A stretch of 31,824 bases of DNA from Candidatus Bathyarchaeia archaeon (GCA_050014495.1 JBEKDF010000032.1:1-31824), one strand, 5' to 3'. Positions 1 through 20,122 are shown, numbered from the stretch's first letter. Made by a program: numbers and translations. Notes: generated by a model not told the origin, from the letters alone.

Positions 1-369
1 TCCATAGAAGTATGCGTATCCAGTCTAGGTCGAGTGAGTCAAGCACACGCTCAACGTTCAACCTACACTCAAGGAAGAGTTATGCGATGTATTATTTAAT
101 TTCTAAACAGCCTTGCGCGCGCGCAAGCTATAGTTTAATGCGAAGAGATAAATAACCAATTAGAGAGAGCACTCAAATTATGTGGATTTGAGGCGCGCAC
201 ACAGAGGGAAACATTACATACTATGGGGAGGGTGCGTGGAGATGGCATTTCCCTCCATATTCAACAAGTCTGGCGTGACATAATCTTATCCTCACTTTCA
301 TCTAATAGTCAATCGTGATTTGTTGATCCGTTGATTATCAGATATGAGTGCCTGCGTATGCAACTTACA

Positions 370-561
370 CTATTTCCTTCTCTTCCTATAATTAGCTAGG
401 ACAATGATTGTTACGAGCAATCCCGCTACGATGAAGCAGGTTGGGAACCCAGGTACACCGCCTCCACTTGACGTCTGCGATGTTCCTCCACCACTGCTTG
501 TCTTTGTTGGCAGAGAGAGTGTACTAGGCGGTGAGGGGAGAGTTCCTATGATCTTGAAGTC
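370..561 (-). pseudogene. C-terminal remnant of a surface protein with PGF-type sorting signal
   Basis: Manual translation DFKIIGTLPSPPSTLSLPTKTSSGGGTSQTSSGGGVPGFPTCFIVAGLLVTIIVLANYRKRRK*: S/T/G linker, VPGF, TM helix, basic tail. No start codon; begins at the (CG)n tract 561-569. Confidence 0.75.
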
Positions 562-620
562 GCGCGCGCCTCATGCGCAAAGTCTTAAGTCCATTTCCCT
601 TACTTTAACAGCGAATCTAC

Positions 621-2192
621 ATGGATCTTAAAGGGTGCTACATGATGGCCGCTGGCAAGAAAGCCACGGCCGACGGCTCGGTAATGGTTGCCAGGAGCTG
701 TGACTCCATTGGGGGCGACGACGTCGTTCAGGTCTTGGCAGTCCCAAGGAGAAGCCACAGACCCGACGAGTTGATAACAATCCCTGAGGCTGGAGGAACA
801 AGGATAAGTCAAGTAGAGGAGACCTGCGCATACATTGGCGTGATGATGGTCGCTGAGAACGTCGATATCCATGAGGCTGAGGGAGGAGTAAACGAGCATC
901 AGGTAATGGCTGGAGCTTCAACGGGTGGTTGGCTTAATCCTAGGGCTCAGGAATTATGCCCGAAGATGCTGACGAGCGTTGGAGACTACAGGATGACCCT
1001 CGTCCTAGAGCGGTGCAGGACTGCGAGGGAGGCCGTGGATCTGATTGGGGAACTAACAGATAGGTATGGTGCGAGGACCGACAACTATATAGTTGCGGAC
1101 CCGAAGGAGGCTTGGTTCTACGAGGAATACCAGGGAAACCTCTGGGTCGCGGCGAGGGTTCCAGACGAATGTTTCGTTGTACAGGCTAACTCGGTGCGAA
1201 TCGACTTTGTCAGCGATGACCCCGATGTTTACAGGTGTTCAAGTAACCTTGTGAGCTTCGCTAAAGAGAAGGGGTTATACGACCCAGATAGGGATGGGGT
1301 CTTCAACCCTGCGAAGATTTATGGCGCCCAGACGGGGAAAAAAAGGCACAACATCTCGGCCCCAGATTACGACCGGAGGCGAATCTGGAGGGGCATCAGC
1401 CTACTGGCACCCTCGGCTAAACCGGAACCTGAGGAGCCGAGTTGGATGTATCCCCTCTTCATAAAGCCAGATGAGAAGCTCACCCCCAGAGACTTCTTGG
1501 CGCTTTTCGAGGACCACTATCAGGATACGAGGTATGATCCATATGGCGTAAAGACTAGTCAGTACAAGCCCACGTATAGCCCCATGATTGCACAGGGGGA
1601 GGGGCACGAGGTAAAGGAGTCGTTATTCCACATAAACGATCAGAGGGAGTACCAGTTAGCACCCAACTGGGGAACTGAGCGGCTGATCGGGACCCCCCGG
1701 AGCGTAACAAACTGGTGCGCTCAGCTCAGAGACTGGATGCCCAACCCCATCGGGGGTCTCATCTGGTTAGGCATAAGCGAGGGTGCGACGACTGGGAGGA
1801 TACCCTTCTATTGCGGCGTCAAAGATACGCCGAAAGCCTTCGCCACCGGGATGAGGGCCTTTGTGGAGAGTAAAGACCCGACTATGATGAACCCATATGA
1901 CCCAGCGTCGGCATACTGGAGCTTCAGGATAGTAACCAACCTTGTGAACCTGTTTTACACAGCTACGAAGGACGAGGTGATACCCATATGGAGAAGCTGG
2001 GAGGCAGATAATTATCATCTTCAACCCGCGGTTGAGAAGGCGGCGTGTATGCTATACCAAAACGACCCAGAGTTGGCACGAAAATTCCTGACGACGTACA
2101 GCTGTGCTAAAGCAAACGAAGCGCTGGTGATAGCCAAGGAGCTGACAGCAAGGCTATACACCATCATCAGCCACTACAACTCTCCCCTCTAG
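621..2192 (+). CDS. Peptidase family C69 (dipeptidase/secernin-like, Ntn-hydrolase)
   Basis: N-terminal GC nucleophile followed by GKKATADGS..ARS; GVNEHQV; LVLERCRTAREAV; ADPKEAW; WVAARVPD motifs. Confidence 0.9.
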   Translation: MDLKGCYMMAAGKKATADGSVMVARSCDSIGGDDVVQVLAVPRRSHRPDELITIPEAGGTRISQVEETCAYIGVMMVAENVDIHEAEGGVNEHQVMAGASTGGWLNPRAQELCPKMLTSVGDYRMTLVLERCRTAREAVDLIGELTDRYGARTDNYIVADPKEAWFYEEYQGNLWVAARVPDECFVVQANSVRIDFVSDDPDVYRCSSNLVSFAKEKGLYDPDRDGVFNPAKIYGAQTGKKRHNISAPDYDRRRIWRGISLLAPSAKPEPEEPSWMYPLFIKPDEKLTPRDFLALFEDHYQDTRYDPYGVKTSQYKPTYSPMIAQGEGHEVKESLFHINDQREYQLAPNWGTERLIGTPRSVTNWCAQLRDWMPNPIGGLIWLGISEGATTGRIPFYCGVKDTPKAFATGMRAFVESKDPTMMNPYDPASAYWSFRIVTNLVNLFYTATKDEVIPIWRSWEADNYHLQPAVEKAACMLYQNDPELARKFLTTYSCAKANEALVIAKELTARLYTIISHYNSPL

Positions 2193-2551
2193 ACGATAAC
2201 GTATTCTCCGCCGATAGGGTAGGTCCCGACTGAGGCCCTCTTGTTGGCGACCCTCTCACGCGCGTACAGCTAAGACCAATCCCGATGAACCTCTGAGGGC
2301 ACCTCCTGAAGGTAGAATCTTCTAATCTGGTCTGGCGTAAGCACAGGGAAGCCCTAGGAATCATGAATAAAAACGAAACCGCATCTACCGAGAGGACGGA
2401 TGGGAGAATGAAACTGCGAATCACACACACATTCCCGTATACTATAATTAATAACTAGGGTGCGCGCGCGTTCGTCGATTGGCTCTTGGTCTGATGCCTA
2501 TCGCTACTTATGGATAGGCGAAAAAGGAATAGCTCCACATTATTTCTAGGA

Positions 2552-2712
2552 GCCATAGCCTTATCCTCACTTCCACCTGAGTGTTACCAGTGATTCTATG
2601 GTTGACGCACAGACGATTGGAGTATGCGTATAACATGATTGGTTGATGTCGTAGCGTTCTACTGCAGGATGGTTTTAGCGCTAGAGATGCGCGCATAGGA
2701 TAAGGCTATGGC
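2552..2712. repeat. 161-bp segment bounded by a perfect 16-bp inverted repeat
   Basis: GCCATAGCCTTATCCT at 2552-2567 and its reverse complement AGGATAAGGCTATGGC at 2697-2712. Confidence 0.85.
2555..2580 (+). repeat. 26-bp dispersed repeat ATAGCCTTATCCTCACTTCCACCTGA, copy 1
   Basis: Identical to 19880-19905. Related copies at 279-300 and 18286-18309. Confidence 0.9.
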
Positions 2713-4160
2713 ATAGTCGCATATCTACAAAGAATGCCTGCGGCGCTCTTCTCACACTCACGAAGACCCTTAACCACACCATTCCCCTCCATTACAAAAT
2801 ACTCGTTAGGAGCATGGGCTCGCGTTCCGTGGCCCAGCATCCCATAACCGAATCCGCCGGGGAGGTTCAAAGGCGTATTAGTGAAGAGGCTGAAGGGGGC
2901 ATATCCAACGTTTCGAACATCTATATGTGGTTTGAGCCCGAAGCGCTCATATGTCTCGCGGATACTGCTCCAGAGGCTGCTGTTGATGCTGGTTCTCGCC
3001 CACTCGCCACCCGTGATGTCCCGGATCCGGATGTCAGAGTAGCCATGCTTGTCCAGGTGAGCTCGGACCTTCGGGAGGATCTCACTTGACCGCTGATTAG
3101 GCACCAGTCGGACATCCATCTTCACAGTCACCTTATGTGGGAGAAGCGTCTTGCTGCCCTCACCGGTATACCCGCCATAGATGCCGTCGATGTTGATTCC
3201 GCTGGGCTCGCAGAAGTACTTAGTCAAGAGCTCACGCGACTGGGTCTTCTCGTCTAAGATGAAACGATCAACACTGTTCGATGCCTTCTGAGGCCCCCAG
3301 TCATACTCCTCTGCAAGCTTCGCGATTATCTCCCTCTCCTCCTCGTTCGGAGGCTCAACGTTATCATACCAGCCATCGATGAGGCACCTGTTTCCATCCT
3401 CGGTCGTCATGGTCTCAAGGGCGTGAATCATCCGCCAGACCGGGCTGTCTACGATGACCTTCATGCTGCCGTGGATGTCAAACTCTTTTGGTCCGCGTCC
3501 CCAGCTTGCCCCGCTGCACTCGAGCTCCCAGTATCTTATGCCCTTTGTTCCCGGAGTGATTGTGATGTTTCCGTCGAGGGACTGGTTTGCGGATGGGAAG
3601 AACATGGCGTCGGCTTCGTTGAGCTCTTTTTTGTGTTCACTAAGAAATAGTGGGAGGTGTCTGCTGGCCTGCTCCTCCTCCCCCTCCGCGACGAGTAGAA
3701 GGTTGACTGGTAGTTCTCCGTTTGTTTCTCTGATGCTCTCGCAGGCGTTTAGGAACGCCATTAATGGTCCCTTTGTGTTGATTGTGCCCCGGGCAACCAT
3801 AGCAGTTTTGAACGGTGGATAGTCCCCCACCTTGTAGTCGTGGACGAGTGCGGCGTCGAATGGTTTTACCGTCCAGCCCGGCTCGTCAGCTGGCATGCAG
3901 TCGTACATCATGTAGATTAGCAGCGTTCGTTTGGCTCCTGCGTCGTAGTAGCCATATACTACAGGCCACCCTGGAGTTTGGGCGATCTCTGTCTTCTTGC
4001 AGCCAAGGTGCTCAAAGTAGCTGAGGAGGAGCGTGGCGCCTTTCTCCATACCTATGCCTGTGTTGCTGATGGTTGGCTGCCTAATGAATTCCCGGATTCT
4101 CTCGACGTGGTGCTCGTAGCTTGCATCTATGTGGTCATACACTTTTTCGAGGTTCATCAC
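2706..4160 (-). CDS. M20/M25/M40 family metallopeptidase (ArgE/DapE/CNDP-like)
   Basis: YMMYD, ARGTINTKG, EGEEE, DIHGS, KMDVRLVP and AHAPNEY motifs. Confidence 0.9.
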   Translation of the reverse strand: MMNLEKVYDHIDASYEHHVERIREFIRQPTISNTGIGMEKGATLLLSYFEHLGCKKTEIAQTPGWPVVYGYYDAGAKRTLLIYMMYDCMPADEPGWTVKPFDAALVHDYKVGDYPPFKTAMVARGTINTKGPLMAFLNACESIRETNGELPVNLLLVAEGEEEQASRHLPLFLSEHKKELNEADAMFFPSANQSLDGNITITPGTKGIRYWELECSGASWGRGPKEFDIHGSMKVIVDSPVWRMIHALETMTTEDGNRCLIDGWYDNVEPPNEEEREIIAKLAEEYDWGPQKASNSVDRFILDEKTQSRELLTKYFCEPSGINIDGIYGGYTGEGSKTLLPHKVTVKMDVRLVPNQRSSEILPKVRAHLDKHGYSDIRIRDITGGEWARTSINSSLWSSIRETYERFGLKPHIDVRNVGYAPFSLFTNTPLNLPGGFGYGMLGHGTRAHAPNEYFVMEGNGVVKGLRECEKSAAGILCRYATMP

Positions 4161-4224
4161 TATCTACAGTAAATACGATTTACTTAGTGCTTAACTTTTG
4201 GGCGCGCTCATCTTTAAGGGCAAA

Positions 4225-4722
4225 TCACCATACATTTCTCTTATTGAGATAGGGTACGAGGCCTCCCGCTTCGAGCACATCCATCATAAAAGGGGGCAGT
4301 GGTGTAAACAGCAACTTTGTACCCTTGCTCATATTAGTAACTGTCCCAGCTCCAAGATCAAGTTCTAAATCGTCTCCCAGCTCGACGGACTTTGTTATTC
4401 TGGGGCATTCAAGGGCAGGTAAGCCGATGTTGACCGCGTTCCTGTAGAAGATTCTGGCGCAGGATTCAGCTACTACGCAACCGACCCCCGCATACTTTAA
4501 CGCGAGCGGCGCATGCTCCCTACTGCTGCCGCATCCAAAGTTTCTACCCCCGACCACGACGTCGCCTTTCTTCACGTTTAGGACGAAGGCGAGGTCAATC
4601 CCCTCCATAGCGTGTCTCCCCATCTCCTCGTGGTCGGTTAGTTCCATGTATCGACCTGGAATTATGTAGTCCGTGTTGACGTTGTCTCCATACTTCCAGA
4701 CTCTTCCAGATATCTTCATCAT
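4225..4722 (-). CDS. leuD: 3-isopropylmalate dehydratase small subunit (archaeal type)
   Basis: GDNVNTDYIIPGRY, NFGCGSSREHA, ARIFYRNAVNIGLP; coupled to leuC. Confidence 0.93.
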   Translation of the reverse strand: MMKISGRVWKYGDNVNTDYIIPGRYMELTDHEEMGRHAMEGIDLAFVLNVKKGDVVVGGRNFGCGSSREHAPLALKYAGVGCVVAESCARIFYRNAVNIGLPALECPRITKSVELGDDLELDLGAGTVTNMSKGTKLLFTPLPPFMMDVLEAGGLVPYLNKRNVW

Positions 4723-5981
4723 TAGACCTTCCTGGGATCTGTTATATGTCCAGTTAGCGCGGAAGCGGCAGCTACAAAGGGTGAACTTAGGTAAACCTCG
4801 GACTCGGGGCTACCCTGCCGACCCTTAAAGTTCCTGTTGCTTGTAGCGAGCCCTACCTCACCGGGTGCTAGTAGACCGATACTGCCTCCGAAACATGCCG
4901 CACAGCTAGGGTTACTTACAACAGCTCCCGCCTCCATGAGTTCTCTCAGGACGCCTCTTTTCTCAGCCTCTAGGTAGACTTGCTTGCTTGCCGGCACAAC
5001 TAGCATTCTCACATCTGGAGCGATCTTCCTGCCTTTTAGAATTCTGAGTGCCATCTCAAGATCCTCAAGACGGCCATTCGTACAGCTACCCAGAAACACC
5101 TGGTCAACCTTGATATGTTCGACCTCCTGGATAGACTTCACGTTGTCGACGTTATGGGGGCAGGCGACCTGAGGCTCAAGCCCAGATATTGGGACATCTA
5201 AAGTGTACTTGTAAATCGCGTCCTCATCAGCTGTGATCGGCGCTGTATTTTCGTCCGTATCCTCCCTCAGCCACTCGTAGGTTTTCTCGTCGGGCTCACA
5301 TATCCCTGCCTTGGCCCCGACCTCGATAGCCATGTTGCAGAGAGTCATTCGACTGCTTACACTCATATCAGTAACGGCTTTTCCTCTGAACTCGAGTGCA
5401 GCATAGGTTGCCCCATCGACTCCGAGAAGTTTAGCGACGCGAAGGATAACATCCTTAGAGGTGATGAAGTCGGGCAACGTGCCAGTGATGTCGACCCTTA
5501 TCGTCTCAGGTACCTTGAACCAGAGCTTCCCGAATGCGAGGGCCGCCCCCGCGTCTGTGCTGCCGACGCCTGTGGCAAATGCTCCGAAGGCGCCGTAGGT
5601 ACAGGTGTGACTATCCGCGCCCACAAAAAGATCACCGGGTTTAACCATGCCGTACTCAGGGACTAGTTGGTGACAGACTCCCTCACCAACATCGAAGTGG
5701 TGAGAGATGCCTTGCTCGCGGCTGAATGCCCGTAGCTCCCTATGAACTTTAGCGGACTGAATTGTGCAAGCCGGCGAAACGTGATCGAGCACAACGATTA
5801 CCCTGCCTGAGTTCCAAACCTGCTTCTTACCCATATCTTTCAGGGCCCTCACGGCGAGGACGCCGGTTGCATCATTGATCATGCAGGCGTCGACTCTTGC
5901 TTTGACAACCTCTCCAGCCTTAACTGAGTCGACTCCGCTGTGTGCGGCGAGTATCTTCTCGCTGATGGTATGGCCAGTCAT
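4722..5981 (-). CDS. leuC: 3-isopropylmalate dehydratase / homoaconitase-family large subunit
   Basis: GADSHTCTYGAFG, FLGSCTNGRLEDL, CAACFG, TSNRNFKGRQG aconitase-family motifs. Confidence 0.93.
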   Translation of the reverse strand: MTGHTISEKILAAHSGVDSVKAGEVVKARVDACMINDATGVLAVRALKDMGKKQVWNSGRVIVVLDHVSPACTIQSAKVHRELRAFSREQGISHHFDVGEGVCHQLVPEYGMVKPGDLFVGADSHTCTYGAFGAFATGVGSTDAGAALAFGKLWFKVPETIRVDITGTLPDFITSKDVILRVAKLLGVDGATYAALEFRGKAVTDMSVSSRMTLCNMAIEVGAKAGICEPDEKTYEWLREDTDENTAPITADEDAIYKYTLDVPISGLEPQVACPHNVDNVKSIQEVEHIKVDQVFLGSCTNGRLEDLEMALRILKGRKIAPDVRMLVVPASKQVYLEAEKRGVLRELMEAGAVVSNPSCAACFGGSIGLLAPGEVGLATSNRNFKGRQGSPESEVYLSSPFVAAASALTGHITDPRKV

Positions 5982-7486
5982 TTCTTTCCCCTCTTCGTCA
6001 TGCCACTGAATACATTCACGCCCTTTAGATAGGCATCAACACTCGCTAGAACTATGTCCTCATTTGTGCTGCGGCTTGAAACCACGTATTCGCCTTGTCG
6101 AAGATTGACCTCAACGTTCACCCTGGCGTCGGTTCCGCCTGTGATTGCCTCAACGTTGTATACGTCTAGGTGGACGCTCTGGTCATGGATCGCCTTGTTG
6201 AGGGCTTTGATGCATGCGTCGACGGGGCCGTCCCCTGTGGCGGCTTCAAGAACAGTCGAGCCGTTCCGTCTAAGCTTCACACTAGCTGTAGGAGTGATCT
6301 TGTTCCCCGTTGTTACTATGAACTCCTCGAGGACTAGTGGGGCCTCAACGCGATTCCCTGTTACTTCCTCGGCTATTGCGTAGAGTTCTGTGTCGCTGAT
6401 GTGTTGGCCGCTGTCTCCTAGATCCTTGACCTTCGCGAAGATGGCGTCAAATTGTTCGGTGGTGGGTTCAAAGCCCATCTCTTTCAGGCTCTTGGTGAGT
6501 CCTGCGCTTCCTGTATGTTTGCCAGTGACTATTCGTCTAGATGCGCCGACCAGGGCTGGGTCTATGGACTCGTAGGTGTGAGGGTCTCTCAGTATCGCAT
6601 GTGTGTGGATCCCGGACTCGTGGGCGAAGGCGTTTGCACCGACTATCGCCTTGTTAACCTGAACCACTATACCCGTAGTCCTGCTGACGACTTGACTCAC
6701 TTGCTGCAGCTGTTCAAGCCGTACACTTGTCTCCACCTCGTAGAGAAGCTTGAGGGCGACAACCATTTCCTCGAGACTCGCGTTTCCAGCGCGCTCACCT
6801 AGTCCGTTGACTGTTCCGTGGAAGTGAGTTGCACCGCCCTCTACCGCCGCTAAGCTATTTGCTACAGCCAAGCCAAAATCATCGTGGCAGTGTACTCCTA
6901 GAGTCAATTTTGGGAAGACGCTGTTGATGTGTTTGTAAAAGTGGTAGCTTTTCTCAGGAGTTAGTGCGCCAACTGTATCGCAGGGTGTGACCCTGTCGAC
7001 GCCTGAGCTGATAGCTCTTCGAATTATTTCCTCTATGTAGGGAAGCTCTGTTCAACTTCCGTCTTCGAGGCAGATCTCTACTACGAGTCCGTGACTTTTC
7101 GCGTAGCTGACAACGTCTGAGGTAATGTCCAGGACCTTGTCCCGTGTTTTTCCCAGCTTTTTCTTGATGTGTAGGTCGCTTGTAGGGATGATGATGTTAA
7201 CAGAGTCTACATTGGCATCTATAGCCGCGTCTATGTCTTTTTTGACGCTCCTAGTCGCGCTACAGATCTCGGCGTCGAGTTTGGCGTTGGCTATTAGTTT
7301 AACGGCTTCCTTCTCCCCCGCTGAGACCGCCGCGAATCCCGCTTCGATGACGTTGACTCCGAGGGCATCTATGGCTCTAGCTATTGTGAGTTTCTTTTCC
7401 TTTGTCAGGGAAACGCCGGGTGTCTGCTCTCCATCACGGAGTGTAGTGTCTAAAATTGTTACTGACTTAGGTTTTTCACCAAATAA
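5978..7486 (-). pseudogene. leuA: 2-isopropylmalate/citramalate synthase (LeuA/CimA), interrupted by an in-frame TGA at 7052-7054
   Basis: One frame reads [23 protein letters not shown]...[13 protein letters not shown]...HCHDDFGLAVAN...NGLGERAGNA...AHESGIH...GDGPVDA. No ATG/GTG/TTG in the N-terminal part of that frame; TTA at 7484-7486 sits where the start is expected. Confidence 0.85.
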
Positions 7487-7606
7487 AACGATACCCCATT
7501 ATTTCACGCTCACGTAGCTATTCGCAGTCTCTCAGTGACATTTAAGCCTATGCGTTATGCAGGCGCTAGATAGATTCAACTGTTTCGAGCGCGCTGAGAT
7601 CGAACC

Positions 7607-8026
7607 CTAGGTACCCTGCATATGACCCATGATCAGGGCTTCAAGCCCTTGACGCCCAACCGCCCCAAGTACTTGGTCGACCTGCCTCCCACCTTTGAAA
7701 AGTATGAAGTTTGGGATACTCATCACCCTGAACCTCGCAGCCGTCACCCTATTCTGGTCAGTGTTTATCTTCGCAAAGTAGGTTCGTCCCGAGTAGTCTC
7801 GTGCTAGTGCCTCGACGATGGGTGCCATCATCTTGCATGGCATGCACCAGTCGGCCCAGAAGTCGACGAGCAGTGGAAGATTTGCTCCTGAAACGACCTC
7901 ATCAAAATTCGCGTCTGTTAGAATGTTCACGACTCCTTCTTGTAGGGTGCTAGGCGTCGACTTCTTGATCATCATCTTCTCCAGCATCCGGTGCTTGATC
8001 TCCTCAAGCTCCTTGTCCTCAGACAT
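7607..8026 (-). CDS. trxA: Thioredoxin
   Basis: VDFWADWCMPCKMMAP, SIPNF; archaeal-style N-terminal extension (DKELEEIK). Confidence 0.92.
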   Translation of the reverse strand: MSEDKELEEIKHRMLEKMMIKKSTPSTLQEGVVNILTDANFDEVVSGANLPLLVDFWADWCMPCKMMAPIVEALARDYSGRTYFAKINTDQNRVTAARFRVMSIPNFILFKGGRQVDQVLGAVGRQGLEALIMGHMQGT

Positions 8027-8096
8027 ACGGGTATGACTCGCGGGTGCTTGTTAAAAAGTGGTTACTTCTTGAGGAAGTTGGGTTTGGTCGCGCGCG

Positions 8097-8355: not shown

Positions 8356-8494
8356 TTCGGGGAGATGCCGCGCGAGCAGAGAGAACGCTGAGAGTTTCAC
8401 AAGCCAGGGTCCGTGAAAGCATTGCGGGAGAAATTGTGCATTTAACAATAATTTTTAATTATATGGTATTTACTGTAATTTATTTGATTATGTT

Positions 8495-10938: not shown

Positions 10939-11111
10939 ATCCCTATTTTATTATCTATAATTCAATATAAAGTGCAGGACTAGACAAATGTGTTCGCGAC
11001 GATTCATATGATCAGATTAGTGTGGCACAGTATCAGGCTTCGCTTGATGAGAGGGCCTATTCCATCGCGGAGAGCTTTCTACATCTATTTTGCGCGCGCT
11101 TGGTATAGTTT

Positions 11112-11966
11112 CTAGGGTCGCTTGTGGAGCGCCCAGTTGGGCCTCCAATCAACGTGTTGTAGAATATACTTCTCAGTTGATATTAGGGGGCGGTAATCGA
11201 ATCCTCCTGGCCTGAGGTCCTGCTGGCAGAAGGCCCAAGCTGAGCCGAACATCGGGAACACGACTCTGCCGATCTTGGAGGGCTCACCCTGACTCATCAG
11301 CTTGAACGGCACCTTCAGCCTCTCGCTCAGCGCAACGTTCGCCTTCAGGGTATCGCTGAGATCGTACAACGAATCGTTCCAGACAACTATCTTAACCAGG
11401 TCCGCGCCGCGTCTAACCAGCTCCTCGCCAACCCTAAGCACGCCCTCGGTGGTCGTTCGGATGAGTAAGTGTGCGGATAGGAGTACCTCGCCCCCCATTG
11501 AGTGAACCTTATCGATGACCTCCATCTGCTTACGCGTCGCCTCCTCGTCGAAGCTGCACTCGCGTGGGAGATCCGATTGGTTAATCGAGATGCCCCTCAG
11601 CCTGGTGAGCTCCCTCTCAATCCTCTCCTTTTGCCATAGCCGCCACGGGTCGAATGTGTCCATCTCCATGTCGAGGCAAGCTGCGCCAGCCTCAACGGAT
11701 TTTAGCATGAGGTTCACCCTGTCCTCATCGCTCTCAGCCGATGTTGGTCTCCTTCTGTTTGTTACCCAGACGGGCTTGGTTGTGGAGGAGACGACCTCCC
11801 GTATCTCCTTCAGCGTCGGAGGGTATCCCTTGAATCCCTGCAGTTCAAGTTGAAACCCGTCTGCGCCGTCGAACTCTCCCAGCTTCATTGATCGGACGCA
11901 GTGTGAGACGTCGTCATCCGAGATCACCCCAACTATGAATGGCCGTGGAAGCTCCGTGAACTTCAA
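11112..11966 (-). CDS. Type I 3-dehydroquinate dehydratase-like protein
   Basis: TNRR, LLSAH, GADLVKIV (Schiff-base Lys) and MSQGEPSKIGRV resemble AroD motifs; contains an insertion. Confidence 0.65.
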   Translation of the reverse strand: MKFTELPRPFIVGVISDDDVSHCVRSMKLGEFDGADGFQLELQGFKGYPPTLKEIREVVSSTTKPVWVTNRRRPTSAESDEDRVNLMLKSVEAGAACLDMEMDTFDPWRLWQKERIERELTRLRGISINQSDLPRECSFDEEATRKQMEVIDKVHSMGGEVLLSAHLLIRTTTEGVLRVGEELVRRGADLVKIVVWNDSLYDLSDTLKANVALSERLKVPFKLMSQGEPSKIGRVVFPMFGSAWAFCQQDLRPGGFDYRPLISTEKYILQHVDWRPNWALHKRP

Positions 11967-12318
11967 ACTTGACCCCTTCCTAAATATCCTAGAGAGTGGA
12001 TAAAAGACTGCATTAATTACTTTAGTGTTAACGATTTTTTTACCAGCGCGTGTATCAATGACAAAAAATAAACCATTTTTCCATGCGCGCGCTTCGTGGG
12101 TGGTAAGAAGAAACCATCAGACAAGCTTGGAGAAAAACCATGAATATGTTTAGAGGTGTTCCGGTTTTTAAGGCGATGAAGCTCGCCTTCAATTGTATGC
12201 GCGCGCTTATCTCATTGTCTATGTTAATTTGATCGGTACGCACATAACCAAGCATCGCGCGCGGTTTCCTTAGCTTTAAGGTGTAGCCTTTCACAACCCT
12301 ATCTATGCTTGGGGTCTC

Positions 12319-12918
12319 ATGAAATTGAGTAATACACCTGGTTACTATGATAAGAGAGGCGAGTTTTGGAGGAAGCACTTCGAAGCCGGTCTCGAGCTTG
12401 AGTCCTTCATCAAATCAGGAAAACCCGAGGAGGTTGTTAATTGGAGGGAGCGGGCTGAGAGAATCCCGGACCTCACACCCGAGCAGAGGGCTCGGTTGGA
12501 AGGTTATGACAGGGAATTAAACATCTTGATGTATGCTGGTACATGGTGTGGAGATTGTTCTCGGCAGGCGCCGATGCTTAAGAAGATAGCTGATGCTGCC
12601 GGTGATAAGGTGAAGCTGAGACTTGTTGAGAGGGAATCCTCTAAGGAGCTACAGGATGAGTTGAGACTAGTTGGCGGGTTGCGGGTGCCTGTTGTCGTCT
12701 TCTTGACGGAGGACTTCTGGGAGGTGGGTCGCTTCGGGGAGCGACTTCTTCACGTTTATCGTTCGAAGGCGGCTAGGGAGATTGGGCGGGGCTCAGATGA
12801 GGGTGTGCTTAGTCCTGGTGCCCTCGAGAAGGAGATGTCGGATTGGCTTGACATCTTCGAGAGGATGCTTCTTATGGTCCGGTTATCTCCTCCTCTTAGA
12901 AAGAGACATGGCGATTAG
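12319..12918 (+). CDS. Thioredoxin-family protein (WCGDC type)
   Basis: AGTWCGDCSRQAP and RVPVVVFL..DFWEVGRFGER. Confidence 0.8.
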   Translation: MKLSNTPGYYDKRGEFWRKHFEAGLELESFIKSGKPEEVVNWRERAERIPDLTPEQRARLEGYDRELNILMYAGTWCGDCSRQAPMLKKIADAAGDKVKLRLVERESSKELQDELRLVGGLRVPVVVFLTEDFWEVGRFGERLLHVYRSKAAREIGRGSDEGVLSPGALEKEMSDWLDIFERMLLMVRLSPPLRKRHGD

Positions 12919-13039
12919 GTAGTTGGTTGTGCGCTTGCTCGTCTACAGGTTCCTTTTCTAGCCGCAATATAATGAAGGTGCACGCGCGCGCAAGTTTTAT
13001 GTATACACAAATTCTAGAGCAATAATAGCAACCGAATTC

Positions 13040-13651
13040 GTGGTGGTGGTAGAGTTAATGAGTAAAATGACAATCATCTCTGTGATAGCGCTGGGAATTA
13101 TCGTGGGGGCGGTGCTGGCATTCATCACTGGAGGCTTTCTCACTTACTATGAGGCACACTCCATGTTTACGACTGTCAATGGCTGGAGCACCAGCTTGAA
13201 TTATGGTGAATGGGGTAACAACATTCTCTTACGAGCAGCGTTTGCCCAAGTCCTTACCGCCGCTAACGTGCCAGCGGAGGCAGTTTACTGGTCAACAACC
13301 GTGGACAGCACGGGTAGCCATCTGAACGGAACACATGACTATATAATGCACTTCCCCGCCGGAGGGCTCCCTCCCAACGATGCCTTCTGGTCGTTGACAA
13401 TGACCGACTTAAAGAGTTACATGGTGAACAATTCGATAAACCGTTATAATGTCGGTTCATTGTCGAACCTTGTACCGAACGCCGATGGGTCCATTGACAT
13501 ATACATACAAAACGCACCTCCATCCGGCAACGAGTCCAACTGGCTGCCGGCGCCCTCAGGCGACTTCAAGCTGTGGCTGCGCGCCTACCTGCCCGGCCCA
13601 GCAATCCTGAATGGTGAATACCAGGTGCCGCCCGTTGTGGAGATGAGCTGA
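13040..13651 (+). CDS. DUF1214 domain protein with N-terminal membrane anchor (start may be 13058)
   Basis: EAVYW, LPPNDAFWSLTM, NADGSIDIYIQ, ESNWLPAP, LRAYLP. Confidence 0.85.
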   Translation: MVVVELMSKMTIISVIALGIIVGAVLAFITGGFLTYYEAHSMFTTVNGWSTSLNYGEWGNNILLRAAFAQVLTAANVPAEAVYWSTTVDSTGSHLNGTHDYIMHFPAGGLPPNDAFWSLTMTDLKSYMVNNSINRYNVGSLSNLVPNADGSIDIYIQNAPPSGNESNWLPAPSGDFKLWLRAYLPGPAILNGEYQVPPVVEMS

Positions 13652-14226
13652 TGCCGAATATTAAACACAAGCAACTGCTCATGTTCGCCTTGATAGTGCT
13701 CGTAGTGTGGGGAGTAGGCACCGTCGCCTACATCTACTATTATCCGCATCTAATTTACGACGCGTGGGATAAGGCGATAGTCAATAACGGCGACGGGGCA
13801 ACGGCAAATTCCTCCGGCATTCCCGTTAATACGCTCTACACGTTGCCCACCCTCGCTTCCCCATCTACACACAACAATTTGGCAGGAGGAAACCACGACA
13901 CGCTCTACACCTTGGGTGTGCTTGATCTGAGCAAAGGGCCGCAGGTTTTGCACGTGCCGAACATGGATGGACGATACTACAGTATCGAGTTCGTCGACCC
14001 TTGGGGTGACGCCTCCTATGTCGGCCAACGCACCACCGGTACTCAGGCGGGTGACTATCTCATCAGCGGACCAGGCTGGAAGGGGAATCTACCCATGGAA
14101 ATGACGCAGATAGCCTTTTCGGACAATTCAGTGCTCATCATCGGAAGGGTGCTCGTGTATAATGATAGCGACCTGACGACCGCCTATAACCTTTCGAAAC
14201 TGATACAGCTCACGCCACTGACATAA
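13651..14226 (+). CDS. DUF1254 domain protein with N-terminal membrane anchor
   Basis: NHDTLY, LDLSKGPQVLHVP..GRYYS, G.RTTGT.AGDYLI.GPGWKG; TGATG coupling to the upstream gene. Confidence 0.85.
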   Translation: MPNIKHKQLLMFALIVLVVWGVGTVAYIYYYPHLIYDAWDKAIVNNGDGATANSSGIPVNTLYTLPTLASPSTHNNLAGGNHDTLYTLGVLDLSKGPQVLHVPNMDGRYYSIEFVDPWGDASYVGQRTTGTQAGDYLISGPGWKGNLPMEMTQIAFSDNSVLIIGRVLVYNDSDLTTAYNLSKLIQLTPLT

Positions 14227-14427
14227 CTGATTAATGCGCGCGCGAAGAATGATGAGGAAACGATAATATGTACCGCCAAAGCCTTTGGTAGAAGGGCTCT
14301 CTCCTCTTGTGAATATTACCTAATAGTTGGTTGCTGTGTCCGTCTGTCTGTTTGTCTTAGAGAGTATAGGAGAGAGTGTAGAGGAGAGAGTTGGTTATTG
14401 AGTTAGGCGTAGTTAATAGCAGGGTTT

Positions 14428-14460
14428 GGGTTTGGGGCCATAATCTTATCCCCCAAACCC
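14428..14460. repeat. Hairpin with 10-bp stem whose loop is the CCATAATCTTATC core motif
   Basis: GGGTTTGGGG (14428-14437) pairs with CCCCAAACCC (14451-14460). Confidence 0.65.
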
Positions 14461-14615
14461 CAGAAAATCCTACTGGAGACAACGGGTACCCGATTTGAGA
14501 CTTGCCTGAAATGAGCTGATTATTCAACTATTCAGATAGAAGTGTAAGAGATACAGTGAGGAAAGCAACAAGGTCTATATATTCTAATGAATATTCTTGT
14601 CAAAGAGTGATTTTT

Positions 14616-16364
14616 ATGCGGTTTAAGATAGGGGTATTCCTCATACTCTGCCTCTACACATCAACGATCTTCGCCGGTGCCGTATCAGCGGACGATTGGC
14701 CGATCGTCCGCCATGATCCAAGCCACACAGGCTACACAACAGATGGCGGCTCCCCCTCAAACAGCACCGTCTGGAGCTACACCACAGGCGCCAGTATAGG
14801 ATCCTCCCCCGTAATCTCGGGCGGCTACGTCTACTTCGGCTCAGCAGACAACAACATCTACTGCCTCAACGCACAAACAGGCTCAAAGGTGTGGAACTAC
14901 ACCATCGGCAAAGGCACATCCACCAGCGGTGGTTCATACACACCCGCCGTCTCAGGTGGCTACATCTATGTAGGCTCCAATGATCATAACGTCTACTGCC
15001 TCAACGCACAGACCGGCGCCAAGGTGTGGAGCTACCCAACTGGTGGCACCGTTTACACCCCAGTCGTCTCAGACGGCAACGTCTACGTCGGCTCCAATGA
15101 TCATGACCTCTACTGCCTCAACGCACAGACCGGCGCCAAGGTGTGGAACGACACCGCCGGCAGCTGGGTCTTCGTCCCCGCCATCTCCGGCGGCAACGTA
15201 TACGTCGGCTCCGCAGACAAAAACGTCTACTGCGTCAACGCGCAGACAGGTGCATTGGTGTGGAGCTACCTAACCGGCAGTTATGTACTATCCTCACCCG
15301 CAGTCGCTGGAGGATACGTCTACGTCGGCTCCGATGACCATAATGTCTACTGCCTAAACGCACAGACGGGAGCCAAGGTTTGGAGCTACACAGCCAAAGC
15401 CAATGTAATCTCCTCACCAGCCGTCGCAGGTGGCAACATCTACATCGGCTCTGATGACCATCACGTCTACTGCCTGAACGCCCAAACAGGCGCTATGGTG
15501 TGGAACTACACAGCCGGCAGCAACGTGTACTCCTCACCAGCAGTCGCAGGCAACTACGTCTACTTCGGCTCCTTAGACCATAAAATCTATTGCCTCAACG
15601 CACAGACTGGCGTTAAGGTTTGGAGTTACACCACCGGCGGCCAAGTGTCCTCCTCACCCGCAGTCTCAGGCAGCGTCGTCTACGTCGGCTCAGATGACCA
15701 TAAGGTCTACGCCTTCGGCGCGACCACCGGCGGGATCAAGGTAATGGTCGCTGACAATAATGGCAACCCAATAGTTGGTGCGAGTGTATCATCAACAAGC
15801 ACACCAAACGGACAAGCTGCTCTAAGCGGAGTGACGGGGTCAGATGGGTCCAGCTCGTTCACGGGCGTAACCCCAGGCTCATACACATTCCAGGTCACAA
15901 TGAGCGGCTACGTGACGAACACGGGAACCACGAGTGTATCAGTAGGGAGCACTGCCAACCTGTCGATCACTCTTCAGACCCAACCCACCATTACCACAGG
16001 TGGAATCAAGGTCACGGTCCTTGATAGCGGTGGCAAACCCATAGTGGGGGCAAGTGTATCCTCAACGAGCACGCCAAACGGCCAAGCTGCTCTGAGCGGA
16101 GTCTCCGGGTCGGATGGATCCGTTACATTCAACGGCGTCGCTGCGGGTAGCTATACTCTCCAAGCGAGCATGAGCGGCTACGTTACCAGCTCCGGATCCG
16201 CCACCGTTGCAGCCGGCAGCGTGATCACCTCATCATTAACCCTTCAGACTCAGTCCACCGGAGGCTCATCCTCTGGGGGAGTGCCCGGTTACACATATGA
16301 AGAGATCATGGCTGGAATCTTCATAGGTATCTTAGTGATCATATGGCTGCGGAGAAGACAATAA
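14616..16364 (+). CDS. Secreted PQQ-like beta-propeller repeat surface protein with two carboxypeptidase-regulatory-like domains and a VPGY C-terminal anchor
   Basis: Signal peptide; about 8 repeats of SSPAV.GG.VYVGS.DHNVYCLNAQTGAKVWSY; two GGIKV.V.D..G.PIVGASV repeats; ends GGVPGYTYEE-TM-RRRQ. Confidence 0.9.
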   Translation: MRFKIGVFLILCLYTSTIFAGAVSADDWPIVRHDPSHTGYTTDGGSPSNSTVWSYTTGASIGSSPVISGGYVYFGSADNNIYCLNAQTGSKVWNYTIGKGTSTSGGSYTPAVSGGYIYVGSNDHNVYCLNAQTGAKVWSYPTGGTVYTPVVSDGNVYVGSNDHDLYCLNAQTGAKVWNDTAGSWVFVPAISGGNVYVGSADKNVYCVNAQTGALVWSYLTGSYVLSSPAVAGGYVYVGSDDHNVYCLNAQTGAKVWSYTAKANVISSPAVAGGNIYIGSDDHHVYCLNAQTGAMVWNYTAGSNVYSSPAVAGNYVYFGSLDHKIYCLNAQTGVKVWSYTTGGQVSSSPAVSGSVVYVGSDDHKVYAFGATTGGIKVMVADNNGNPIVGASVSSTSTPNGQAALSGVTGSDGSSSFTGVTPGSYTFQVTMSGYVTNTGTTSVSVGSTANLSITLQTQPTITTGGIKVTVLDSGGKPIVGASVSSTSTPNGQAALSGVSGSDGSVTFNGVAAGSYTLQASMSGYVTSSGSATVAAGSVITSSLTLQTQSTGGSSSGGVPGYTYEEIMAGIFIGILVIIWLRRRQ

Positions 16365-16383
16365 AGACATCTTTGTGCGCGCG

Positions 16384-16604
16384 ATGTAGTCGGTCTGGAG
16401 CCGCTCCAGGGAAGTCTTCAGATAATGATCAAAATCCCCGCTGCTTCGGACCAGAAAGGTGGGAAGCTTGGTGGCGATCCTAACCCGCTTTCGATACTCA
16501 TCCTTCAACACGATCCAAATTATCTTCTCGCTGTCGCCGAGATGATGCATCCAGGTCGAGTCAAGATAATTTATGCCAAGATCTATTCCGTGATGTATGA
16601 TCGT
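16384..16604 (-). pseudogene. Internal fragment of an aldo/keto reductase
   Basis: IIHHGIDLGINYLDSTWMHHLGDSEKIIWIVLKDEYRKRVRIATKLP...LKTSLERLQTDYI matches the AKR pattern GINY.DTA..Y...SE...ATK...SL.RL.TDYID; both ends abut (CG)n tracts. Confidence 0.85.
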
Positions 16605-16703
16605 CGCGCGCGCTGACTTCCATTCTAGAGACTGTATCATTATTGGAACCTATCTCGGTTTAATACTACTCGTTAGAACAGCTCAAAGTTTGCGAACGAA
16701 CGC

Positions 16704-16793
16704 TTAGAATATGTCAACAATTCTAGGAGTCCAACTCTTGCTTTCTCCCCTAAGATACATCGCGAACAATAATGCCTCCTCGTTGATCAGCGT
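16704..16793 (-). pseudogene. C-terminal remnant, probably of an archaeal solo Cas1
   Basis: TLINEEALLFAMYLRGESKSWTPRIVDIF*. Resembles from memory the C-terminus of archaeal solo Cas1 proteins; not searched. Starts at tract 16794-16803. Confidence 0.5.
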
Positions 16794-17092
16794 GCGCGCG
16801 CGCCGGAGATTGCAGGGCTCTGTTCAATGTAATAATCCATTTGACATTGTATTCTTCTGACTGAGCCTAGTTCAGCTGTCTGCTCAAGGAATCAGCTCCT
16901 TCTGTAAGAGCTGGAGAGTGCATCTCAGTTTTCCGAGATGAAAGATTCCTGAGTGCAACGTATCCTCTCAAATCGAGAAAACATAATCGTCTCTACGAGA
17001 TTCCGTGCACAAATTGATTGCTTAAAGGCGCACGCTTGTATGTATCGCTCACAAAAAGCTACAAATGATCTACCAAATACGCAACTAAGGCG

Positions 17093-17656
17093 TCATTTTA
17101 ATAGCTTTTTCCCTACACTGAACGCCTTCTCGAACTCCTGGCCAGACCCCATGTATACAGCCGCCGGGCTTTCTATCAGGGAGAACTGTTCAGTCTTAGG
17201 GACGTCCAACTTCCCATTAGTCAAATATTTTTCATCGGCGTAAGCCGTGACGACCTCCCCGATGAAGAGCCGTGAGTCGGGCAACTCGACCGTCTCCTTC
17301 AACTTTAGCTCAAGGCACACCGGGCACTCGCCGACCATAGGCGCCTTGAACTCCCCGTACTCGACCTTAAAAACTCCCGATTTGTCCGTCTTCCTACCCG
17401 AGACCATGCCACAGTAATCAGTCTTCTCCACGAGGCTCTTACACGGGAAATTGATGCTGAAGACCTTGTTCTCCTTGATACCCTCTGCGGTGTACCGTGG
17501 ATTCTCCAGCGATACCATAAACATCGGGGGATTGACGTTGACCTTGGAGAACCACGCCGCCGTCATGAACGTAGGTTTTCCCTTCACATTTGCCCCAACC
17601 AGGCATACGGGCATGGGGTATGCCTGTGTGTTTGCCTCGATCTTTACCTTAGCCAT
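17093..17656 (-). CDS. Flavin reductase family protein (flavoredoxin-like)
   Basis: YPMPVCLVGA, FSINFP, DYCGMVSGRKTDK, APMVGECPVCLE, LFIGEVV; start placed at MAKVK. Confidence 0.88.
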   Translation of the reverse strand: MAKVKIEANTQAYPMPVCLVGANVKGKPTFMTAAWFSKVNVNPPMFMVSLENPRYTAEGIKENKVFSINFPCKSLVEKTDYCGMVSGRKTDKSGVFKVEYGEFKAPMVGECPVCLELKLKETVELPDSRLFIGEVVTAYADEKYLTNGKLDVPKTEQFSLIESPAAVYMGSGQEFEKAFSVGKKLLK

Positions 17657-17789
17657 TTCATATGATGCCTCCACAGTCTGTTGCGATGAAGCTTCCTTCA
17701 CTCACAGTAGTGTAAATTTGGAAGTATTTAAACGGGAAAGGGTAAAGCATTACAGTTGGTGTAGCGATGGGAAGCGACACGCTTGATAT

Positions 17790-18098
17790 TTGTCTGGGCT
17801 CCGGGAGTGCTCTGATCCAATGCTGGGAAGTAGGGGGACATTGGATATATTATGCGTTTTCAGCTGTGGGACAAAGACTGTACGCTTTAATCAGCTGAAC
17901 AGTCTGCTTGGGCACATAAGCACCAAGACGCTGGCATCTAGGCTTAAGGAGTTGGAGAAAAACGGTATACTTAGGCGAACAGCTTACAATGAGATACCTC
18001 CAAGGGGGGAGTACTCGATAACGGAGAAGGGGCAAAATCTCACCGAGGTACTGGTACCACTGGTGCTGTGGGTGGAGAAGTGGGCTGAGAAAGAATAA
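17790..18098 (+). CDS. HxlR-family winged-helix regulator
   Basis: RFNQL...ISTKTLASRLKELEKNG...YNEIPPRGEYSITEKG; divergent from the flavin reductase. Confidence 0.88.
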   Translation: MSGLRECSDPMLGSRGTLDILCVFSCGTKTVRFNQLNSLLGHISTKTLASRLKELEKNGILRRTAYNEIPPRGEYSITEKGQNLTEVLVPLVLWVEKWAEKE

Positions 18099-18263
18099 GC
18101 TGTAGGCGAACTAGTCTCGCTTCCCATTCAGGATAGTAGCTATTCTTAACCTACTCGCACCGATGAAACCATTTTACGAAAATTTACCTTTCATAGTCTT
18201 CTCATCTGCATGCTCGAGTTCCATCAACTTAAGAAAATCTTATCCCAAAGTTATTTTTGGTAG

Positions 18264-18309
18264 AAGCCTCATCTTATGCGCGCTCAAACTTATCCTCACT
18301 ACCACTTGA
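18264..18309 (+). repeat. Composite motif (CCTCATCTTATGCGCGC + CTTATCCTCACTACCACTTGA)
   Basis: Same two-part arrangement as 19864-19905. Confidence 0.7.
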
Positions 18310-18383
18310 ATGCGCATGCTACCTGCAGAGTTTGCATAAAAAGAGATTCCTATAAAACCCACCTCTCATAAGCATAGAAGATT

Positions 18384-19196
18384 ATGGGTGAACGCTTGGA
18401 GGCTCTCGAATTGATAGACACACATTGTCATCTTGAACAGTCAGTTTACGACGAAGACAGGGAGGACCTCATAGCAAAGTGCAGGAAACAAATGTCCGCA
18501 GTCATCACTGATGCGCCTGATCCCCAGCATTTCGGCATCACCTTCGACATGGTGAGCAAACACCCAGGCTTCCTATTCGCAATGGGAGGCATTCACCCCG
18601 AATACGTGGACAAATTCACCGATAATGCCGTCGATGAAGCATTCAACACACTCAGGGAAAATAGGCATAACCTGGTTGGCATCGGTGAGACGGGCCTAGA
18701 CTACGCCTACATCCGCGGCGAGGCGGAGAGGGAGGAGCAGAGGCGACTATTCACCAGATTCATAGATCTGGGCAGGGAACTAGGCCTCCCCATAGTCGCC
18801 CACCTGCGCAACGGCGGAGATGAGACTGATGTCTTTGACGACGCCTTCGAGATACTGAGAGGTAAGGACGCTCGAAGGGTGCAGCTCCACATGTTCGGGT
18901 GCAGGCGACTCGTAGATGAGGCCATAGGACTCGGGTATTACATCTCTATGAACGCCATTGTGCTGCACAGTAAGACCTATCAGAAGGTGGTGCGCGACGT
19001 GCCGCTGGAGAGGCTGATGCTGGAGACTGACGCCCCGTGGCTTCACCCAACTCTCGACAAGGAGAAGCGAAACGACCCCACACATGTCCGTGAGGTCGCT
19101 GAGAAGATAGCGGAGATAAAGAAGATACCTGTGGAGAAGGTGATCGACTCCACGTCGAGAAATGCAGTGGATTTCTACGACCTAAAACTCCGCTAA
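18384..19196 (+). CDS. tatD: TatD family hydrolase
   Basis: IDTHCHL, GIHP, GIGETGLDY, LETDAPW. Confidence 0.93.
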   Translation: MGERLEALELIDTHCHLEQSVYDEDREDLIAKCRKQMSAVITDAPDPQHFGITFDMVSKHPGFLFAMGGIHPEYVDKFTDNAVDEAFNTLRENRHNLVGIGETGLDYAYIRGEAEREEQRRLFTRFIDLGRELGLPIVAHLRNGGDETDVFDDAFEILRGKDARRVQLHMFGCRRLVDEAIGLGYYISMNAIVLHSKTYQKVVRDVPLERLMLETDAPWLHPTLDKEKRNDPTHVREVAEKIAEIKKIPVEKVIDSTSRNAVDFYDLKLR

Positions 19197-19288
19197 ATAT
19201 GTGGCTACGTGTTCTAGTCGTTAGAACTGGTTAAGTAGTCCTGATCTGAGTCTGCACGCTTTGTGGTATGCATTTTGGAGTAGCGTTT

Positions 19289-19807
19289 TCACTCGATTAG
19301 TATTAGTCCAAAATAACTTCCTTGGCTTTCTTTGTTATTCAAGACATTGATGCTGAAACCATTTCCCCTCACAGTTTCATAAACATCAATTCCAGCCCCC
19401 TCCATGGAAGGTCTAGCCTGTTCGGCATGAACACAGGTTTTCAAGTTACATTTTTCGCACAATCCACAGCCACCTCCCTTAAAGCTGAAGGCTTTATATT
19501 TTCCGTCTAGAAATAGGGCTTTCTCTATTTCTGGGGCAATTTTTTTTGCATCAGTTAATGATTTGAACTTGACTAATAACGCGTGGCTGTATTCGTTGAT
19601 GGCTTTCTGGGTCTCATCGGCTGTGGGTGTGAAGGGTGGGCAGCAGAGGTTTGTTCCGTAGTTGCTGCAACCATATTGGCATCGTAATCTAGTCCAGGCC
19701 GCGGTTTTTATTGATGAGGTGGGAATTATCTTCGCTTCTACTGCTCCTTTATCAAGAGCGAGTTTGGTGTAATCGGAGTATTGTTTTTTGTCAGTTATGG
19801 TTGCCAT
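19289..19807 (-). CDS. DUF2284 predicted metal-binding protein
   Basis: RLRCQYGCSNYGTNLCCPP, GGGCGLCEKC, ARPSMEGAGIDVYETV. Confidence 0.85.
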   Translation of the reverse strand: MATITDKKQYSDYTKLALDKGAVEAKIIPTSSIKTAAWTRLRCQYGCSNYGTNLCCPPFTPTADETQKAINEYSHALLVKFKSLTDAKKIAPEIEKALFLDGKYKAFSFKGGGCGLCEKCNLKTCVHAEQARPSMEGAGIDVYETVRGNGFSINVLNNKESQGSYFGLILIE

Positions 19808-19863
19808 GGTTCTAGTCAATTTTACTTGATTTAAAGTCTTTTTTTCGGAGTCTGGTGTGCGCA

Positions 19864-19960
19864 CCTCATCTTACGTGCAATAGCCTTATCCTCACTTCCA
19901 CCTGATCCTCGAAAATTTAACCCAAATTGAATTTGGCATAAGCCTCATCCTAGTGTGCAA
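19864..19960 (+). repeat. Cluster of the dispersed motif, including the 26-bp copy at 19880-19905
   Basis: CCTCATCTTACGTGCA, ATAGCCTTATCCTCACTTCCACCTGA and CATAAGCCTCATCCTAGTGTGCA (19937-19959) in direct orientation. Confidence 0.8.
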
Positions 19961-20106: not shown

Positions 20107-20122
20107 GCATTATGTGATCAAT

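Follow-up and report, generated by a model that had tools for sequence, protein, structure and literature searches.

The window analysed here is a stretch of 31,824 nucleotides (GCA_050014495.1, JBEKDF010000032.1:1-31824) that forms contig C32 of G000, a 3.1-Mb Bathyarchaeia bin in 92 contigs (96% complete, 7.5% contamination). It carries copies of a 28-bp sequence, the A site, which consists of a 13-bp core and a 15-bp arm A (consensus CAATAGCCTTATCCTCACTTCCACCTGA) and recurs throughout the genome. According to the best explanation that we can offer, to which we assign a probability of about 0.55, the core is the insertion site of casposon-like elements that encode a stand-alone (solo) Cas1, and the same Cas1 likely exchanges DNA between cores and thereby moves single-gene units. 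The two locations of the core, at solo-Cas1 element ends and at the start of every gene unit, make a casposon-like insertion site likely.

The original prediction, made from the sequence of the window alone, described a dispersed motif with a shared core and two alternative arms, A and B, and took its copies for att-like sites of a tyrosine recombinase that are physically linked to (CG)n tracts. All the copies it listed are present, and the 26-mer at 2555-2580 is identical to that at 19880-19905. The profile scan it proposed was performed over the whole 3.1-Mb genome with a 28-bp matrix built from 160 seed copies: 191 copies reach the threshold of at least 18 bits, against none in an order-4 Markov null (1 Mb sampled, both strands). 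Arm A is real, but the core extends over 13 bp, C(A/C)ATAG(C/T)CTTATC, the centre of the 28-bp site is invariant over 6-7 bp, and the copy at 14438, which had been left unclassified, is bordered by the repeats GGGTTTGGGG and CCCCAAACCC. The supposed arm B dissolves into two things, namely the 7-8-nt linker of a gene-less unit of about 80 bp (14 copies by pattern) and GC scars that truncate the site, as at 2689-2698. Nor did the link to the (CG)n tracts survive: tracts of at least 7 nt lie within 60 nt of 10 of the 191 sites, where a random draw of intergenic positions from the same contigs gives 17.8 (95% range 11-27), so that tracts and sites are not linked.

The sites are nearly all co-oriented. 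In the dominant A form the arms have no inverted repeat, and read from the opposite strand the site starts with a G-rich segment of 15 bp, while of the 13 bp that come next those beside this segment are the best conserved; a palindromic repeat-core-repeat form has a 10-bp stem around a 13-nt loop. The dyad CACCTGA-N6/7-TCAGGTG occurs in few copies only and overlaps the ribosome-binding word. At no more than two mismatches, the site is found in 10 of 17 genomes of the genus and in none of 23 more distant ones. Exact matches in the GTDB collection comprise 39 stretches, all from Bathyarchaeia, and diverged versions lie upstream of DUF4760 genes in G001, G007, G010 and G021. The viral collection yielded neither the site nor a relative of the solo Cas1. 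A tRNA origin was also considered: none of 40 tRNA 3' ends resembles the site, and the nearest site is 572 nt away.

Elements that encode solo Cas1 are mostly 5.7-6.3 kb long and carry terminal inverted repeats GGGTTTGGGG with the 13-bp core adjoining. Across 49 distinct metagenomic loci of solo Cas1, the nearest repeat of this type with a core faces outward in 21 of the 21 loci that have one downstream and in 9 of the 9 that have one upstream; both ends are seen in L102, L105, L106, L109, L144 and L149. Repeat sites number 57 in 259 kb of Cas1 loci and none in 109 kb of control loci (mostly integrase, the rest CRISPR-cas1), with 0.02 per kb genome-wide. Of the suggested association with xerA/integrase or cas1 genes, the part concerning Cas1 has thus been borne out for the solo enzyme, and the part concerning integrases has not. 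Five of the 12 cas1 genes and pieces in G000 have an element end within 3 kb downstream (2% at random), and a sixth has one at 3.4 kb.

The junctions themselves are informative. A repeat stands directly before position 1 in 18 of 320 A sites, where 0.3 are expected, and the leader is still present behind arm A in 10 of these 18. Positions 1-2 are CA in none of the 18 repeat-adjacent sites but in 158 of the 302 others, which fits either an element that brings its own core or a preference for CC targets. Behind the right element end the core is forward in 11 cases, reverse in 9 and palindromic in 1 (n = 21). A symmetric transposon is expected to take its target in either orientation, and a tyrosine recombinase is not; hence the observed orientations agree with the former. 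Sixteen repeat-bounded segments have cores in direct repeat, and in 7 of them both cores are identical, including lineage-specific variants (L095, L105, L109). The core varies by Cas1 lineage and the repeat is constant; in G007, a core of diverged sequence stands both before DUF4760 genes and behind a repeat. Cas1 very probably inserts repeat-ended elements at the core.

The genes of the elements were compared across 24 loci. An ATPase with MCM-like motifs, as read from the alignment, is encoded in 12, a small basic protein in 11, and in 9 a small protein whose match to AEP primases is weak (E 8.5e-4, below cut-off); the latter is conserved, has 140-195 aa and a DxD motif and lies beside the ATPase and the basic protein (interiors of L102, L105, L109, L125, L128, L129 and L144). 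The three proteins could possibly constitute a minimal replication module. Profiles of the primase-like and ATPase proteins retrieved no solved relative at E<0.1, and no PolB was found among 46 open reading frames (ORFs) scanned, a set that took in part of the 88 representatives. Likewise, the scanned ORFs of bounded Cas1 elements include no tyrosine recombinase. Within nine bounded elements only a single ORF exceeds 450 aa, and it clusters with a helix-turn-helix (HTH) protein. Defence-type cargo often lies beside cas1: CAP12/Pycsar TIR, Schlafen AlbA_2, DUF4238 and a weak Shedu match (L036:316-1143, L106:7786-8919, L144:2429-3169, L125:1521-2654, L125:5990-6970, L092:9608-10288). The element ends are telomere-like, with GGGTTT or GT repeats in variable number after about 100 nt of purine-rich low-complexity sequence (window 14337-14437, L102:127-230, L102:5830-5937), and their 3-4 G runs could form a quadruplex.

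G000 possesses one intact stand-alone cas1 gene, on contig C80 (1672-2697, minus strand), and eleven pieces, two of them in the window. The solo Cas1 scores 152 bits with PF01867 and 162 bits with TIGR00287, below all subtype cut-offs, and keeps the E, H and D/E positions of the catalytic motif. Its gene neighbours are not cas genes, and no Cas2 or effector genes were seen beside cas1. In a Cas1 tree that took in only the solo family and eight CRISPR-type Cas1 of relatives, 16 solo copies are separated from those eight by a 100/100 branch. The best solved match is the CRISPR Cas1 4n06 (E 1e-23), ahead of 6opm (E 4e-13), which we take to be a casposase. At E<=1e-40 the solo Cas1 has 2,065 relatives, and those with a named organism are Bathyarchaeia. 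Pieces of solo Cas1 are found in 8 of the 10 site-bearing relatives, and small ones also in G001 and G007, whose sites are diverged.

Most copies of the A site lie in same-strand runs, in which 117 units are shorter than 3 kb (median 642 nt). Contigs C72, C74, C75, C77, C84 and C86 are largely made of such units, and many arrays fill whole small contigs. A DUF4760 gene follows 89 of the 191 sites and a DUF4760 5' stub another 28 (117 together); the remaining sites head another gene within 70 nt (12) or a gene farther away (31), face a gene on the opposite strand (24) or lie at a contig end (7). The same sites also bound unrelated passenger genes and the 80-bp gene-less unit. Among 180 cases, 29 have the stop codon of the upstream gene within the site itself and 57 have it no more than 40 nt away. 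Behind the site comes a leader of about 20 nt with GTGA, and the start codon is placed at +46 to +49 in 98 of the 112 copies that have the start motif. The core sits at the position, -40 to -30, where TATA-like words are most frequent upstream of 619 ordinary genes. Given the fixed start-codon distance in most copies, the site probably doubles as a promoter and start module, and would serve as the promoter of the DUF4760 genes. Judged by sequence, the DUF4760 start module and the proposed Cas1 landing site are one. A fixed distance from transcription starts had been named in the original prediction as a sign of a transcription-factor site; that sign is present in part, as a fixed distance from the start codon in most copies.

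DUF4760 itself is represented in G000 by 127 profile hits on 36 contigs, 84 of them near full length. The paralogues have a median pairwise identity of 32% at the protein level, and their N-terminus has a hydrophobic stretch that may be a membrane anchor. An Atlas look-up on the function of the family returned DUF4760 clusters only. Similar arrays are found inside an 81-kb contig of G002 and in G016, and in G021, the complete genome of a member of another genus, DUF4760 genes stand in tandem and are headed by a diverged, pyrimidine-rich module (L216, G021:C1:840000-858000; L219). A literature search, with subscription papers outside its coverage, found no description of such arrays in Bathyarchaeia.

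The halves of the site occur in every combination, as the original prediction had anticipated for its arms: the 360 classified sites include 28 repeat|A, 37 repeat|repeat, 29 other|repeat and 236 other|A junctions. Together with the change of neighbours at these positions, this supports the view that the sites are recombination or insertion junctions. Sixteen pairs of sites in G000 have a common left flank; they show no differences at positions 1-4 and few within the site, and divergence jumps at position 29 in 10 of the 16. With relatives added, 18 left-sharing pairs (one a duplicate locus) differ by 1.0 at positions 1-7 against 2.33 for random pairs, and by 1.61 against 2.64 at positions 14-28; only 3 right-sharing pairs passed. 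The exchange point thus lies within the site and is not pinned to one position. A crossover fixed at position 28/29 was considered as well and is weakened by arm-A differences near the random rate in left-sharing pairs. The 84-nt gene-less unit at 19880-19963 recurs at C7:91904-91987 with other neighbours (98.8% identity), and one particular DUF4760 3' end is followed by core and arm A in four copies and by core and repeat in L192.

We propose the following mechanism. Cas1 would attach the terminal repeats of an element at the two edges of the core, and arm A would act as a leader-like recognition segment. Arm A and the next 20 nt would also be the promoter and ribosome-binding region of the DUF4760 genes, and with this double role each unit would arrive with a further landing site and with the signal for its own expression. 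When two cores are cut reciprocally, the unit between them would leave as a circle, and units would in this way be shuffled and amplified. For the exchange between two cores, by which Cas1 would move units without repeats, we reason by analogy with the casposon of Methanosarcina mazei and see the chances as even. More tentative still is the idea of a Cas1-run integron, in which a domesticated casposase would recombine directly between the roughly 190 copies of the site on which it lands. The captured genes would have this site as their promoter, and a library of more than 100 hypervariable, membrane-anchored DUF4760 proteins, with passenger enzymes, would be built up and reshuffled; such a system would be intermediate between casposon, integron and CRISPR array.

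A number of observations weigh against the proposal that Cas1 both inserts at the cores and exchanges DNA between them. The gene units carry no terminal repeats, and adjacent A sites are no more alike than random ones (76 pairs, 3.05 vs 3.13 differences at positions 7-28, p 0.38), so that there is no sign of units arriving with a fresh duplication; the same comparison speaks against duplication of the whole 28-mer on insertion. In some pairs the arm-A variant goes with the left flank and in others it differs, a pattern that also fits homologous recombination. Neither a circle nor an empty site was seen, the data holding no reads on the window itself, and no empty/filled allele pair with both flanks was found. 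At the Cas1 loci, many of which are short contigs, a downstream end is missing in 28 of 49 and an upstream end in 40 of 49, and some loci (L101, L120) come from the same organism as G000. The two cores differ at 2-3 positions in 9 of the 16 bounded segments and are inverted in L102 and L149. The sole intact cas1 of G000 lacks helicase and primase neighbours, the site-bearing G004 and G005 gave no Cas1 match, and G021 has no match to the solo Cas1 despite its diverged modules and DUF4760 tandems.

The last point favours an account in which the site is simply the promoter and start module of DUF4760 genes, spread by tandem duplication and by homologous or microhomology recombination, while Cas1 elements only land on the core. 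The predominance of DUF4760 genes and stubs behind the sites speaks for it, as do the start-codon distance, the position of the core at the TATA-like peak, the diverged versions before DUF4760 genes in four other genomes, the missing duplication signal and the variable exchange point. It is harder to reconcile with the passenger genes and the gene-less unit between the same sites, with upstream stop codons in or near the site, and with the 55 of 191 sites that have no same-strand gene within 70 nt; moreover, the low identity of the paralogues leaves only short homology. On balance we regard this account, the main rival, as doubtful. Much less credit is due to a reading in which a tyrosine recombinase (XerA or the integrase of an element) acts on dif-like or att sites and Cas1 is a passenger. 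The 28-bp length of the sites, their invariant centre and the combinatorial arms would suit it, and G000 has 13 matches to PF00589, several of them 1-4 kb from arrays, with one more beside the G002 array. Yet the dominant form has no inverted arms, those of the palindromic form are 13 bp apart where 6-8 bp is the established spacing for such sites, and behind element ends the core occurs both ways round. Cas1 is encoded in the bounded elements, whose scanned ORFs include no tyrosine recombinase; the control loci, mostly integrase, are free of repeat sites; the integrases of C40, C18, C9 and C48 are located at tRNA genes; and PF00589 has no match in the site-bearing G015 or in G011 (88% complete, 22 sites). 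Directly behind tRNA-Leu on C40 (4931-6563), 650 nt from an array, lie a XerA-like integrase and a 173-aa partner.

It is very improbable that the whole pattern reflects the ends of insertion sequences (IS) or miniature inverted-repeat transposable elements, or contigs misjoined at a repeat. The fragmented state of the bin, its contamination and the arrays that fill whole small contigs would permit it, and the left end of a DDE-type IS does have a core-like word, GAATAA.CTTATC, upstream of the transposase start. This word is located at C17:58804 (+), C5:83866 (-), C61:6062 (+) and C66:9277 (+) and is probably the IS promoter. However, contigs from four peat runs cover all 30 bins of the C72 array, and a 1,476-nt piece spans a site in two runs; together with the arrays in G002 and G016, this makes misassembly an unlikely explanation. 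The peat contigs stop at sites on the C72 array, and their joints are uninformative. As to known transposons, IS110, considered as a source, has two intact copies in G000 whose ends are unrelated to the site, and neither a Y1 transposase nor a reverse transcriptase has a match in that genome.

The features of the window are compiled in the table.

Features of the 31,824-nt window that relate to the A site, the B units and the Cas1 elements
Feature	Position	Strand	Basis or remark
Degenerate A site, then decayed leader	278..305	+	31.3 bits
Peptidase C69 gene	621..2192	+	ORF, PF03577; inside 2,275-bp unit between A sites 278 and 2553
Near-consensus A site	2553..2580	+	50.5 bits; 26-mer identical to 19880 copy
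Leader with GTGA and 11-codon DUF4760 stub (ATG 2598, stop 2631-2633)	2581..2633	+	
Core (2711-2699), right arm replaced by GC scar (2689-2698)	2689..2711	-	sequence
Solo cas1 relic, residues 82-112, toward 14438 junction	10986..11078	+	tblastn E 1e-5
Cas1 element end: purine-rich subterminal tract of about 100 nt ending GGGTTTGGGTTTGGGG	14337..14437	+	
13-bp core common to two abutting element ends	14438..14450	+	sequence; 10-bp stem, 13-nt loop
Terminal repeat CCCCAAACCC of second element	14451..14460	+	sequence
cas1 3'-end relic, residues 314-338, toward 14438 junction	16719..16793	-	tblastn E 3e-6, 80% identity
B unit: core 18232-18244, collapsed pair CCAAA..TTTGG, core 18261-18273, 8-nt linker	18232..18281	+	
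Degenerate A site upstream of TatD gene	18282..18309	+	21.0 bits
B unit remnant: truncated second core and 7-nt linker	19864..19877	+	sequence
Consensus A site	19878..19905	+	51.5 bits
Gene-less B unit: core 19909-19921, repeat pair, core 19937-19949, linker, 6 nt of next core	19906..19963	+	

The leader and stub behind the second A site are 89-96% identical over about 70 nt to the starts of intact units, and the first cas1 relic has 82.5% nucleotide identity over 80 nt to the intact gene on C80. The element end at 14337-14437 is 70-81% identical over about 100 nt to ends on C81, C6 and L096. The repeat-core-repeat junction at 14438-14450 is likely to represent two decayed elements tail to tail. 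The B units at 18232-18281 and 19906-19963 would be shrunken, collapsed elements; the former is seen directly in the sequence and has matches in G000 and in relatives. With the query used, no more than 2 of 17 relatives gave the TatD gene behind the 18282 site. The two cas1 relics stop at (GC)n tracts or within about 15 nt of one (10986-11099, 16719-16803), and several cas1 pieces on other contigs do likewise.

Elsewhere in the window, positions 1-125 resemble an IS end that also occurs at the contig ends of C1, C31, C43 and C71 and is closed by a GC tract. The right-hand decayed element contains a 602-aa PQQ-type beta-propeller protein with two carboxypeptidase-regulatory-like domains and a C-terminal anchor (14556-16364). 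A DUF1214/DUF1254 gene pair (13040-14226) has paralogues of about 70% identity on C34 and C24, and the LeuA-like (5978-6907) and aldo-keto-reductase (16332-16640) ORFs seem to be 5'-truncated or fragmentary. A metal-handling cluster (20105-24921) comprises ArsR, a low-molecular-weight phosphatase/arsenate-reductase-like protein, an HMA protein, a P-type ATPase, a GcvH-like protein, two DGC-domain genes and an OsmC-like gene.

CRISPR adaptation has been proposed to derive from casposons, whose mode of excision is unsettled. About 190 natural copies of a target, a matching intact Cas1, and units with and without repeats make both the target rules and the excision model testable. If Cas1 does exchange repeat-less units, it would be a cassette recombinase unrelated to IntI and a gene-moving tool that acts on short sites; if only landing is driven by Cas1, the system would be a modest extension of the PolB-less casposons. 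In addition, a large unexplained expansion, that of DUF4760, is tied to a mobile element. The novelty lies in the scale of the system and in evidence for one site being both the start module of DUF4760 and the proposed landing site of Cas1.

The dif and pdif modules of XerC/D and XerA are 28-bp sites that flank accessory genes and have one side better conserved; a dif/Xer site consists of two inverted 11-bp arms and a 6-8-bp spacer, and its exchange has a fixed orientation. The A sites are alike in length, in their position beside accessory genes and in having one better conserved side. They are unlike in that their centre is invariant, nearly all are co-oriented, and ends of Cas1 elements adjoin them. 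CRISPR arrays resemble the present arrays in the Cas1-family enzyme and the layout of repeat, unit and repeat. Here, however, the units are whole genes of about 0.6 kb, no Cas2 or effector was seen, and there is no signal of duplication from neighbour to neighbour.

The closest likeness in mechanism is to casposons of families 1-4 (AciBoo-C1 of Aciduliprofundum boonei, MetMaz-C1 of M. mazei): a stand-alone Cas1 with catalytic motifs lies inside terminal inverted repeats, the core is in direct repeat in 16 segments (13 bp here, 14-15 bp there), the site is reused with repeat-core-repeat junctions, and one side of the duplicated segment is best conserved. The target of the A. boonei casposon is given in PMC6614799 as -15 to +14, close to the 15 + 13 bp of the A site. 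Tandem casposons with one common duplication are described in PMC4779613. For M. mazei, PMC10359463 reports that excision left one site and that the target was replaced by a reverse-complemented copy; a circle carrying its own target, with cuts in both target copies, is proposed there and was not detected. In contrast to these families, no PolB was seen here but an MCM-like ATPase and a small primase-like protein, the site is a gene start module in about 190 copies rather than a tRNA end, and most units between cores have no terminal repeats. Family 5 casposases, proposed by Salgado et al. 2022 (PMC9755687), mostly have no PolB, with terminal inverted repeats in five contigs; as described there, they appear to share with the solo Cas1 the proximity to type I-A Cas1, the lack of a C-terminal HTH and the retention of catalytic residues. 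The words "cassette", "primase", "helicase" and "Bathyarchae" do not occur in the main text of PMC9755687.

In layout, the arrays recall integrons, including the archaeal ones (Ghaly et al., 10.1101/2022.02.06.479319); both have same-strand, single-ORF units between repeated sites, stop codons often inside the site, ORF-less units, exchanged neighbours and more than 100 sites over many contigs. They differ in that each unit here seems to carry its own start module and in that IntI is missing, none of 7 matches in G000 exceeding the TIGR02249 cut-off (best 53 bits vs 265). An A site with its flanks, folded on either strand, showed no structure of the attC type (z -0.83 and 0.39), and two B units gave no attC-type hairpin either (z -0.04 and 0.30). 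In its workings the system resembles a casposon, in its layout an integron.

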